In this document: positions 9,001 to 12,000 of the stretch, one piece after another
How positions within the stretch are numbered: the first letter of the stretch is position 1
Layout of the letters: every line of letters begins with the position of its first letter
Assembly: GCF_002854065.1 (NCBI RefSeq)
Contig: NZ_CP024150.1
DNA from: Escherichia coli
Lineage (GTDB): Bacteria > Pseudomonadota > Gammaproteobacteria > Enterobacterales > Enterobacteriaceae
Direction: 5' to 3' (one strand)
DNA: 64,000 nucleotides
Program-made: the position numbers

Positions 9001-12000
9001 ACCAGATGCCCGTGTTGAATCCCCATCCATAATCCCGCCTCTGCCAGAATACGGTGTACAGCCAGGCAGCTTTTCAGTTCACCATTGCGCGCCATTGCCG
9101 GTAAGCGTTCGGCAAAATGACGGCAGGCGTACTGTTTCAGACTCTCCGTTTCTGCCACTTTTTCCGGCCGGATATCAACGTTTATGGCTTCCGGATCATA
9201 ACGACCGGGTGTCCCCACCTGACTGAAAATATCTGTCGGTACAGGCTGATATTCCCCCAGTTTCCGCCCCAGTTTTTCAGCTGTCCATGACGGTCCGAAC
9301 GAACTGAGTGCAATACCTTCCCGCGCTTTGTCCCAGCCATTCTTCACCACCAGTTCCCCTTCCTGCATCGTGATATACAGACCATCACTGGCCAGCCGTT
9401 TATGCAAAGATAACCAGTCCTGTGCTGGCTCTTCACGCAGCCCGGCAATCGACATCTGATCAATATATTCCCTGAACGTCTGCTTTTTCCCGCGTCGCCA
9501 GGCATTACGGCGCTCACGTACCAGCGCTGTTTTGCGCACAATACGATTGCCCGGTGCATGTACAAAGCAACCATTATCCGGCGCGAATCCGTGCTTAAGT
9601 TCAAGTTCACGGCATGCACGACTGAGTTTTTCCTGGCTCCACGGAAGGCAATTGATATAACCAGTTTCAGGGTGGACACGATTCACTGCAACATGTACAT
9701 GCAGGTTATCCGTGTCTGTATGAACGGCTGCCACATACTGATGTTTTGACAGCTCAAGGGATTTCAGGGTGTGACGCACACAGTCAAAAAGCTGCTCAGA
9801 ACGCGGACTTTCGTGCGCAGGCCAGGAGAGAATATAGTGAAAAACAGGGTCTGTATCATCTTTGGAAAAATGAGCAAGCTCTGCTGCTTTCTGCATTTCT
9901 TCAGCCGCAGATTCAAGAGACAAACAGTTATGAAAGCAGGTCACACCATAGAAATTCACCCACTGACTGCCGTCTTTCATCACATCAATCAGGGAAACAA
10001 ATTTTTCATTACGCAGACGTGTTGCATAATCAACAAGACGTCTGAAGCGGTTCCGGTGCGGAATCTCAGCTTTCATTTCCGTGTCAGGCCTGAGTTCATC
10101 TTCCGGCACATCATCCCGCACTGAGGTGTACGCAATCAGGTCTTCAAAAGAAGACTTTCCGTCACGTCTTTTTTTCGGAATGATGGCATTCATCAGCGAT
10201 TATCTCAGCGTCCCATTAAATTTCTTCGCAGAGTATTAGCAAGCTCTGTAATAGCAACGAGAACCTCTGCATACTCTTTATCTCCCGTGCGTTTTCCTTC
10301 CACAAACAGATGCTTCTGCAGGCGACCAAGACGCATCAGCTCTTTCAAAAAATCTTCGTCAATGCGGGCATTTATCTGTTTTCCCAGCACAGTTTTTCTT
10401 ATCAGAGTTGAAACTGTCAGTCCGTTTTTTTCTGCCTTTTCTTTAACAATCTCAGCCTCTTCTGGTGAAAAACGAACAGCAATGAGGACATTCTTTTGCC
10501 GTTTCTCACTGCCACTTCGGGTTTTCTTCTCACTCATGGTCTGCTCCTTACCGGGGTGTCGGGGCTAAGCCCTGACCAGGTGGTAATCGTATAGCCGTGC
10601 GTGCGCGGTTATACGATTACACATCCTGTCCCGTTTTTCAGGTCATTATAGCCTGTTATTTTTGTGCATCATAGTCTTATGCAGACGGCAGAGGCAGGGC
10701 GCAGCCCTGCCAGGAGTCAGTTTTTGATGATAAAATCAGACTTCAACATGAAACGGAGAGACAGTGCCAATGGCTTCTAAAAAATTTTACTCAGATGATG
10801 ACATCCAGCTGGCAAAAGCTGCCTTATCGGAATTGCCGGACCTCACCGCTCAACGGAAAACATTGCGTGATTTTCTTGATGCCATTCGTGATGACATCAT
10901 TGTCCTGGTAAGGACAAAGGGTTATACACTGGCAGATGTTCGTGACACGCTCAAAAATGCAGGGTATGAAGTAGGAGAGAAGGCACTTCGTGACATTATT
11001 CGGGAAGCAGAATCGAAAAAACTATCCCGCCGTTCTTCCTCTAAAACAGCACCTAAAAAGACAGATTCAGGCAGTAAAGATGGCATCGATATGAACAACA
11101 ATTGATGTGACAATGTCACATCGTGTTCTGAGATTATGATGATTACAGAAAAAAAAGCCCCGGCATAAATACCAGGGCTTTTCTGTTTAATCAGACTCGT
11201 GGCGGCAATGCACCAGGATAATGCCGTGCAATAATATCATTCAGTTTTTCAACAAGGTCAGGACGCTTAAAGACAATGTGTACGGTCCCTTTCTGGTAGC
11301 CACGCACCGTAAAATATTCCCCTTCTAACAGCTTACCGACATTGTCGCCGTTCCCGAGAAATTCACCATACTGCGCCCCGATGCTGCTCCGGAAGTCAGG
11401 AACGTTGCGCCCCTCCAGCAGATAAAAAGGACGTACCAGGTCATCCAGTGCCTCCCGTCCGCTGCAGTCCAGCGTCACACGCCCGTTACTCCAGCGGTAC
11501 AGCATGTTTTCAATAATGATTCTCTTGCCCAGACGGCAGGGATTATTGGTTCTGTAATCCCATGACAATTTCCGGTAGACATCAATCAGTCCCTGTTCAA
11601 ATGTCTGCATCTTACTGGCATTCAGATAGCGAAAAGTTGCCAGTACATTGTCCAGTGTGATTTCAGGACAGGTGTCGCTCATCAGCTGGCTGTTCCACTC
11701 ATCACGCTGGCATGAACTCATGAAGGTGTACATGCCAGTATCCGTCATCAGGCGATCCCAGATTTTCCGGTCGGCAAGACGAGTGATATTCTTATTTGCT
11801 TCTTCCGGTTTATCCATGCATCGAACGGAGTCAGTCACGCAGTCTTCAAACCCGTAGAGAAAAATGTCACCGGAAGCATCGAGCAGAATCCTGCGCGCTG
11901 TCGCCAGGCATTCCATCGCCTGCATGAACAGTGCAATACCTTCGTTACGCTGCGCAATGATGCGGTCGATAGCCACAGACGGAATAACGTCTGTCGTGCC

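Follow-up and report, generated by a model that had tools for sequence, protein, structure and literature searches.

In the window, by which we mean the whole 64,000-nucleotide stretch of Escherichia coli DNA that was analyzed, a 232-bp intergenic region separates a nikA-nikB gene pair on the minus strand from a divergent gene on the plus strand. This region contains two inverted repeats and a conserved nick region, and a damaged trb region lies beyond nikB. The features are as follows.

4469..7252, plus strand: damaged trb region, delimited with NCBIfam, BLASTP against R64 TrbC, and the intact trbA/trbB/trbC of pCT
7473..10193, minus strand: nikB, MOBP relaxase, 906 aa (Pfam Relaxase, 9e-29; NCBIfam TraI_MobP_relax, 408 bits, cut-off 250)
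10205..10537, minus strand: nikA, relaxosome accessory protein, 110 aa, ribbon-helix-helix (RHH; Pfam NikA-like, 6e-22)
10558..10576, plus strand: distal 8-bp inverted repeat, GTCGGGGC-TAA-GCCCTGAC, equivalent to the R64 8-bp repeat set; a separate hairpin in the predicted single-stranded DNA (ssDNA) fold
10583..10600, plus strand: left, nick-distal arm of the long repeat, equivalent to R64 "repeat B"; well-paired core at 10583-10597; pairs in register with the right arm
10603..10620, plus strand: right, nick-proximal arm, equivalent to R64 "repeat A"; core CGGTTATACGATTAC at 10606-10620; predicted NikA binding site
10621..10640, plus strand: nick region, ACATCCTG followed across the predicted cut by TCCCGTTTTTCA; identical to R64 through TCCCGTTTTTC; fits the MOBP consensus
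10770..11105, plus strand: first leading-side gene, 111 aa, homologue of R64 YggA (96% identical to the R64 protein)

Both nik genes are full-length open reading frames (ORFs), and their products have the same lengths in pCT. NikA shares 67% identity with its R64 counterpart and diverges more in the N-terminal DNA-binding half, where the β-strand residues read NVLIAVRF here and TVVRTLRF in R64; it also matches the NikA(1-51) structure (PDB 2BA3). NikB is 72% identical to R64 NikB, and the I-complex plasmid pMS7163B cannot conjugate without nikB (PMC10286972). The NikB motif AVHTDTDNLHVHVAVN aligns with AVHHDTDNLHIHIAIN of IncP TraI, and HxDTDNLHxHxAxN is common to both relaxases. The catalytic residue of NikB is probably Tyr22, within SSFEDLIAYTS, judging by the resemblance of this segment to SDFAELVKY(22)IT, which we take to be the corresponding motif of RP4 TraI. 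BLASTP placed NikB Val71 opposite TraI Tyr22; we judged this pairing to be a local-alignment artifact because SSFEDLIAY(22)TS is much more like the TraI motif and because the alignment to the NCBIfam relaxase profile begins at residue 1. A structure search with the relaxase domain returned only marginal matches to HUH transposases (E about 2e-3), a result that is consistent with an HUH fold and uninformative.

The 111-aa product of the first leading-side gene has no Pfam or NCBIfam match. Its R64 homologue is named YggA, and the pCTX-M3 homologue, Orf35, represses nikA, nikB, and traH (PMC6112013); by analogy, this gene may encode a repressor of the nikAB operon. Farther into the leading region, downstream of the predicted nick, lie ardA and psiA, both on the minus strand. 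An Rfam scan of positions 9000 to 19000 found no families.

The site is very probably an oriT of the R64 family

The sequence-only reading had proposed an oriT-like site at 10583-10628, built on an 11-bp perfect inverted repeat. This repeat is indeed present (GTAATCGTATA, 10583-10593; TATACGATTAC, 10610-10620), and it belongs to a longer one, which spans 15 bp with one mismatch (10583-10597 and 10606-10620) or, in its widest form, 18 bp with two mismatches (89% complementarity; 10583-10600 and 10603-10620). The nic sequence had been placed 2 bp after the repeat, a spacing that holds for the ATCCTG hexamer only; ACATCCTG (10621-10628) directly abuts the right arm, the end of which is 8 nt from the predicted nick. 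The published MOBP consensus is (C/T)ATCCTG(C/T), usually with an inverted repeat upstream (PMC3772185). CATCCTGT at 10622-10629 matches this core and has the repeat upstream, bearing out the proposed resemblance to MOBP nic regions, and the proposed placement between nikA and the first leading-side gene was correct.

Alignment with R64 oriT, which the sequence-only reading had named as a check, supports the proposal and makes the site a positional orthologue of the oriT of the IncI1 plasmid R64 (the R64/ColIb-P9 type). Mean column identity to R64 is 96% in the alignment of the intergenic region. The R64 nick region, ACATCCTG followed across the cut by TCCCGTTTTTC, is identical in the window, as is the 19-nt nick region ACATCCTGTCCCGTTTTTC when R64 and pCT are aligned together; the distal 8-bp repeat has arms identical to those of R64 and differs at one loop base. 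In R64 and in the window alike, oriT is upstream of nikA-nikB, and the long repeat, in register between the two, ends 8 nt from the nick. R64 is reportedly cut between this G and T, a result said to go back to Furuya and Komano in 1991. Carrying this position over by homology, we predict that the cut falls between G10628 and T10629 and that the plus strand is the transferred strand. In R64, NikA binds repeat A, and repeat B has a role in termination. The R64 oriT core consists of repeat A and the nick region (PMC4743918), and mutation of the homologous ACATCTTGT inactivates the pCTX-M3 oriT (PMC7440800).

From these comparisons, we consider it very likely that positions 10558-10640 are the oriT of an R64-family, IncI-complex transfer module, carrying a repeat-arm allele common to the IncK plasmid pCT. 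R64-type oriT sites have been classed as MOBP12 (in a preprint). The nic core had been described as RP4 type; this stands as a statement about the architecture common to MOBP systems and fails as a family assignment, the actual family being the IncI-complex R64 type.

Repeat arms and a possible NikA specificity allele

The long arms set the site apart from R64. Those of R64 (GCAATTGTAATAGCGTC and GACGGTATTACAATTGC) span 17 bp with one mismatch, whereas those of the window (GTAATCGTATAGCCG and CGGTTATACGATTAC) span 15 bp with one mismatch; each window arm is one position shorter in the alignment, and the site is 2 nt shorter overall. Identity to R64 steps from 54-82% to 94-100% at about position 10627, and to the right of the nick the leading region matches R64 at 94-100%. 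Among 76 loci with an adjoining nikA, the class of the nick-proximal arm tracks the N-terminal class of NikA in 75 (R64-type, 30; C-type, 26; K-type, 13; D-type, 6; one exception). Because the arm differs from R64 at 5 of 15 common positions, the NikA β-strand residues differ as well, and arm class tracks NikA class, the comparison suggests a NikA specificity allele different from that of R64. Cross-recognition by R64 NikA is uncertain, given the differences between the arms and a NikA that is only two-thirds identical and most changed in its N-terminal RHH half.

Host plasmid and damaged trb region

At about 100% identity, the host plasmid matches the complete record NZ_AP027791, on which an enterotoxin B-subunit gene and an operon for a type IV pilus are found; MOBF+MOBP is the type given to the best-matching record. 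Relative to pCT, the trb region has a 1,912-bp deletion, joined at window positions 5301-5305, that removes trbB entirely, together with the 3′ end of trbA and the 5′ end of trbC. The resulting trbA′-′trbC fusion ORF (4469-5755) is cut short by a TAA nonsense codon at 5753-5755, where pCT has AAA, and the remainder of trbC occupies 5783-7252. In pMS7163B, trbA is essential, and trbAC is among the genes that R64 needs for surface conjugation (PMC10286972). The near-identical complete record lists no I-type type IV secretion system (T4SS) or tra genes in its PLSDB gene table, which omits pseudogenes. Given a coupling-protein gene, trbC, that is truncated and also interrupted by a stop codon, the loss of trbB, and the absence of I-type T4SS genes from the listing, we consider it most likely that the oriT-nikAB module makes this plasmid mobilizable by a coresident I-complex helper rather than self-transmissible.

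Alternative explanations

Could a chance palindrome beside a chance YATCCTGY match, or an intrinsic terminator, account for the site? The 8-mer is common in the window (14 copies versus 7.6 expected), and so the core alone is not diagnostic. Only the copy at 10622, however, has a substantial repeat just upstream (score, 12, versus at most 6 elsewhere), which dismisses chance for the combination of core and repeat, although not for the core by itself; the 13-mer ACATCCTGTCCCG occurs exactly once in the window. As ssDNA, positions 10555-10640 fold at −23.2 kcal/mol (z = −5.9), a stability equaled by 0 of 200 shuffles. We also compared 28 distinct oriT variants drawn from 155 matches in public contigs; these variants are related by descent, and the search pattern fixed both flanks, so that flank conservation in this set is uninformative. 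Across the variants, 91% of stem cells are paired; sliding the partner column lowers this share to 30-51%. Double changes, one in each partner, occur at 8 of 17 stem pairs, and 0 of 500 shuffles reached the observed covariation score, a pattern that we read as selection on the repeat. The long repeat arms vary by compensatory changes relative to R64 and other arm alleles, and the oriT region is conserved in hundreds of plasmids. As for a terminator, there is no T-run directly after the stem on either strand, and a promoter/terminator scan called none at the repeat. Its two elements, one weak promoter-like site (10707-10736, plus strand) and one terminator-like hairpin (10639-10655), both lie off the repeat, and we rejected a promoter or terminator reading of the repeat on this ground. 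The R64 alignment, the unique upstream repeat, and the covariation effectively refute an origin by chance or as a terminator, the probability of which we regard as negligible. It is somewhat less remote, and still highly improbable, that the inverted repeat is no nick site and serves solely as an operator or transcriptional control element, to which NikA or the YggA-like protein binds, controlling nikAB and the divergent yggA-like gene. The site does lie within a divergent intergenic region, which must place the nikAB promoter on its right-hand side, with transcription crossing the site; moreover, RHH proteins are often autoregulators, and in pCTX-M3 the homologue of the YggA-like protein is a repressor of nikAB. 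Yet the adjoining nick region is identical to that of R64 and fits the MOBP core, the 8-nt spacing is kept as far away as RP4, and on small plasmids the repeat and nick region occur where there is no nik gene to regulate. A regulatory role would add to oriT function rather than replace it.

A site that is an oriT by descent may also be a relic, left unused together with nikAB after decay of the I-type system and persisting only through recent acquisition. The 1.9-kb deletion across trbA-trbB-trbC, the added nonsense codon in trbC, the requirement for trbA in pMS7163B and for trbAC in R64 surface conjugation, and the lack of listed I-type tra/T4SS genes in the near-identical record all speak for such decay. 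Nevertheless, nikA and nikB are full length, the repeat and nick region do not differ from those of pCT, and a helper plasmid could provide both the T4SS and the coupling protein; many small contigs and plasmids that lack nikA have the same oriT allele, which shows that it is commonly used in trans. On balance, we think a relic unlikely, although it is the most serious of these alternatives, and we favor an oriT that can be used with the help of another plasmid.

Proposed mechanism and wider reading

With R64 and RP4 as models, an RHH dimer of NikA would bind the nick-proximal arm at 10606-10620 and place the NikB relaxase on the adjoining conserved nick region. NikB would cut the plus strand at the predicted position and then remain linked to the 5′ T by a covalent bond to a tyrosine, probably Tyr22. 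The plus strand would be transferred 5′ to 3′, with the leading region (10629 onwards, comprising the yggA-like gene, ardA, and psiA) entering the recipient first and nikA and nikB entering last. At the end of the round, the re-emerging single-stranded repeat arms could form a hairpin beside the nick region and so aid rejoining by NikB. Because ardA and psiA are on the minus strand, the predicted transferred strand would be their template. Leading-region genes of ColIb-P9 are expressed early from the incoming strand, and the predicted template assignment agrees with such expression.

The position of oriT defines the cis-acting site of spread and the direction of transfer, and hence the order in which genes enter the recipient. 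A joint reading of the locus, which we advance tentatively and hold at slightly less than even likelihood, combines discrete arm/NikA specificity alleles, allele exchange at the nick, and a module that hitchhikes without a T4SS. It would comprise at least four covarying I-complex alleles (R64-type, pCT/K-type, GGGAATGTCTGA-type, and GCAATTGTATAA-type), which would decide which helper mobilizes which oriT-bearing plasmid. Alleles would be exchanged by recombination exactly at the nick, where the step in R64 identity lies, and the mosaic plasmid would have kept only oriT-nikAB, losing its T4SS and coupling protein and coming to need K-type I-complex helpers. The common IncK, IncB/O, and IncI resistance plasmids could still mobilize this mosaic E. 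coli plasmid when present in the same cell. This is of epidemiological interest, given that its near-identical complete record has the enterotoxin B-subunit gene and apparently lacks mating machinery of its own.

Comparison with known systems

The site shares with RP4/RK2 (IncP-1, MOBP11) the core YATCCTGY, nicked before the final Y, and an imperfect inverted repeat ending 8 nt 5′ of the nick. The IncP order traI-traJ-oriT-traK also corresponds to the order in the window (minus-strand relaxase, minus-strand RHH gene, oriT, divergent plus-strand gene). The similarity goes no further. Comparison with RP4 oriT, the other alignment named in the sequence-only reading and made here by inspection rather than formally, shows no visible similarity beyond the core, and the RP4 arm GTGAAGAAGGAACACCCGC appears unrelated to the window arm GTAATCGTATAGCCGTGC by the same means. 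NikB is 24% identical to IncP TraI and NikA is 30% identical to TraJ, with an NCBIfam TraJ score of 35.6 bits, below the cut-off of 134; the mating-pair system is MPF_T in RP4 and MPF_I in the R64 family. We rejected membership in the IncP family on the grounds of the unrelated arms and flanks, the low NikB and NikA identities, and the subthreshold TraJ profile; by these sequence comparisons, the site is RP4-like in its predicted working and outside the IncP family. A search of the whole window for the F nic sequence, GGGGTGT followed across the nick by GGTGCTTTT, gave two matches with three mismatches each, which is the chance level. A second, F-type (MOBF) oriT was rejected for want of an F nic in the window; the near-identical plasmid has its F traI remnant beyond the window.

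Close relatives of the site are the oriT of the IncK plasmid pCT (NC_014477) and those of related I-complex "cluster 2" plasmids. The site has the same repeat, spacer, and nick region as pCT, base for base, and a 501-bp query region is 99.2% identical. The replicon context differs: the plasmid here is a mosaic typed as IncFIA/IncFII, in which the trb region is damaged and for which no T4SS is listed. In a plasmid collection, 107 plasmid records match the 123-bp site at at least 99% identity. The oriT sites of IncZ/IncB plasmids have 8-bp repeats identical to those of R64 and 17-bp repeats that differ because NikA differs (PMC3817090); this published description fits the site in the window, and the IncB and IncZ reference plasmids p3521 (GU256641) and pO26-CRL125 (KC340960) may carry the same allele. 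Because the same sequence is present in pCT and the 107 records and fits the published description of the IncZ/IncB oriT, the site is already known, and the site, family, and mechanism are those of textbook MOBP conjugation and not new biology.

Plasmids of the pEC156, NTP16, pCERC7, and pU302S type carry only oriT or only nikA in addition, have an R64-family repeat and nick region, and need an I-complex helper (PMC4743918, PMC9282650). Contigs of about 0.5-4 kb and 1.5-kb E. coli plasmids that lack nikA likewise carry the arm allele of the window. In contrast to these small mobilizable plasmids, the window retains the full nikA-nikB operon and the leading region.

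A long inverted repeat and nick region between nikA and the leading region

The site lies, as the sequence-only reading had placed it, between the NikA-like gene and the first leading-side gene. Its immediate neighbors are as follows.

7473-10193, minus strand: MOBP relaxase, 906 amino acids, 72% identical to NikB of the IncI1 plasmid R64
10205-10537, minus strand: NikA-like ribbon-helix-helix protein, 110 amino acids, 67% identical to R64 NikA
10770-11105, plus strand: YggA homologue, first leading-side gene, 111 amino acids, 96% identical to R64 YggA

The sequence of 10583-10628 is GTAATCGTATAGCCGTGCGTGCGCGGTTATACGATTAC-ACATCCTG, followed by TCCCGTTTTTC. 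The perfect 11-bp inverted repeat reported from the sequence is present (10583-10593 and 10610-10620) and is part of a longer imperfect one, described either as 15 bp with one mismatch or as 18 bp at 89% complementarity. The 2-bp gap reported between repeat and core applies to the ATCCTG hexamer only; ACATCCTG directly abuts the right arm, whose end is 8 nt from the predicted cut between G10628 and T10629. The core is uninformative by itself: the window holds 14 copies of YATCCTGY, versus 7.6 expected by chance. Of these copies, however, only that at 10622 is closely preceded by a substantial inverted repeat, and ACATCCTGTCCCG occurs once in the window. As single-stranded DNA, 10555-10640 is predicted to form two hairpins (-23.2 kcal/mol, z = -5.9).

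In this predicted fold, the CCTG of the nick core (10625-10628) is paired with a CAGG that precedes the left arm (10576-10579), which lengthens the predicted stem and leaves the predicted nick at its base; CAGATG and CATCCTG in R64 show comparable complementarity. The CAGG flank was held constant by our search pattern, and its sameness among variants says nothing about conservation.

Arm classes follow NikA classes

A single pattern scan of each of the genome and metagenome collections, anchored on the conserved flanks, returned 155 matches representing 28 distinct oriT variants. When these variants were aligned in a single register, 91% of stem cells were paired, versus 30 to 51% with the partner column slid. 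Changes on both sides were found in 8 of the 17 stem pairs, and none of 500 shuffles reached the observed covariation score, in a set of variants that share descent and whose flanks the search pattern kept constant. These comparisons provide evidence for selection on the long repeat.

The arms fall into discrete classes: R64-type, K-type (shared by the window and the IncK plasmid pCT), GGGAATGTCTGA-type, GCAATTGTATAA-type, and a degenerate class on small plasmids. In 75 of 76 loci with nikA adjoining the site, the nick-proximal arm class follows the NikA N-terminal sequence class, as would be expected if this arm were the NikA binding site. The sole exception, a metagenome locus with a K-type right arm (CGGTTATACGATTAC) beside a C-type NikA (MSEKKTRTGSENRKRIVKFTARF...), may be a recombinant.

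Several other matches lie on short sequences. An R64-like variant whose left arm is degenerate (GGCAAACGGAATATCGTC...GACGGTATTACATTTGC+ACATCCTGTCCCG) was found on 11 contigs of 0.4 to 2.3 kb, some labeled as very low coverage, in assemblies of taxa that are not related (Flagellimonas, Micromonospora, Mycobacterium, Bradyrhizobium, Halobacillus, and others); a small mobilizable E. coli plasmid has probably contaminated these assemblies. On each of seven short metagenome contigs the pattern is present two to four times, in some cases inverted and a few hundred base pairs apart, and these contigs may represent small plasmids with multiple oriTs, plasmid multimers, or assembly artifacts.

Neighboring genes and a model of transfer

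The NikA N terminus matches the solved structure of R64 NikA(1-51) (PDB 2BA3), and the MOBP histidine motif of the relaxase, AVHTDTDNLHVHVAVN, aligns with IncP TraI. The YggA homologue has no Pfam or NCBIfam family match; its pCTX-M3 homologue, Orf35, represses nikA, nikB, and traH (PMC6112013). Several GenBank records wrongly label this leading-side gene [quoted passage not shown] Beyond it lie further leading-region genes, among them the minus-strand ardA and psiA.

By homology, NikA on the nick-proximal arm (10603-10620) would place NikB at the conserved nick region, where NikB would cleave the plus strand between G10628 and T10629 and remain bound to the 5' end. The plus strand would move 5' to 3', so that the recipient would first receive 10629 onwards, and nikA and nikB last; at the end of the round, both arms could pair as a hairpin in the single strand, aiding rejoining. 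The orientation of ardA and psiA fits this choice of strand, because the transferred strand would be their template. Related experiments lend support to this model: the I-complex plasmid pMS7163B cannot conjugate without nikB (PMC10286972), the pCTX-M3 oriT is inactive when its homologous nick region, ACATCTTGT, is mutated (PMC7440800), and R64 mobilizes small plasmids bearing an R64-like oriT (PMC4743918).

A mosaic plasmid with a damaged trb region

The window is a mosaic. It is colinear with E. coli plasmid NZ_AP027791.1 (positions 82310-18311, reverse complement; 99.98 to 100% identity), and the following positions were converted from the annotation of that record.

~19,830-34,030: inositol catabolism (iol) island
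~37,620-38,125: second ardA
~60,460-63,640: type IV pilus operon, distal part

Two umuD/umuC-type loci and IS3 and IS30 copies are also present. Outside the window, NZ_AP027791.1 holds a gene annotated as cholera enterotoxin subunit B, microcin B17 genes, and an F traI-traX-finO remnant.

Nucleotide identity to R64 is 54 to 82% across nikB, nikA, and the repeat arms, then 94 to 100% rightward from ~10627 (nick and leading region). Given this step, the divergent module gives way to the conserved one at the predicted nick. The step is compatible with recombination at oriT, which it may reflect; NikB-dependent recombination at the R64 oriT is cited in PMC5714925.

While trbA, trbB, and trbC are all intact in pCT, the corresponding region of the window (4469-7252) carries two lesions. 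A 1,912-bp deletion (junction at ~5301-5305) joins trbA codon ~279 to trbC codon ~117 with loss of trbB, and a nonsense codon at 5753-5755 (AAA in pCT, TAA here) splits the remaining trbC, whose product is a DotL-like coupling protein. The near-identical complete record NZ_AP027791.1 lists no I-type tra/T4SS genes; its entries include the F remnants, IncFII repA, and the type IV pilus operon. Since trbA is essential in pMS7163B and trbAC is among the genes needed for R64 surface conjugation (PMC10286972), these losses suggest that the plasmid is probably not self-transmissible by an I-type system. The oriT-nikAB module beside them is intact and most likely allows a helper to mobilize the plasmid; that it is a mere relic seems unlikely to us.

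Comparison with known transfer origins

The repeat and core read from the sequence were confirmed, and their interpretation as an oriT is supported. The site is an ordinary, previously described transfer origin, since the IncZ/IncB oriT has been published and the sequence is present in pCT and, at ≥99% identity, in 107 plasmid records. In IncZ/IncB, the 8-bp repeats match R64's exactly and the 17-bp repeats are divergent, which was ascribed to differing NikA (PMC3817090). Nine E. coli plasmids of 1,549 to 1,591 bp carry an oriT 92 to 93% identical to that of the window over 86 nt. The matched stretches bear no annotated feature, and these plasmids look like oriT-only hitchhikers on I-complex conjugative plasmids.

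Alignment with R64 and pCT identifies the site as the R64 oriT's positional orthologue. It has the same nikA leader, distal 8-bp inverted repeat (10558-10576), and nick region as R64, and the difference is confined to the arms of the long repeat. In pCT these arms are identical to those of the window, and the surrounding 501 bp are 99.2% identical. Judged at the sequence level, the site has every defining feature of an R64-family oriT, and its core and upstream repeat bear out the proposed MOBP-like nic region by fitting the consensus (C/T)ATCCTG(C/T) with an inverted repeat upstream (PMC3772185).

The proposed RP4-type assignment is correct for core and architecture but not for family. The distance from arm end to nick is 8 nt in the window, R64, and the IncP-1 plasmid RP4 (whose oriT sequence, as used here, matched IncP-1 plasmids at 100%), and the IncP order traI-traJ-oriT-traK equals that of the relaxase (minus), ribbon-helix-helix gene (minus), oriT, and divergent gene (plus) here. 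In contrast, the RP4 arms appear by inspection to be unrelated to those of the window, and IncP TraI and TraJ are 24 to 30% identical to its NikB and NikA. These comparisons place the site outside the IncP (RP4) oriT family, with which it has only core and architecture in common.
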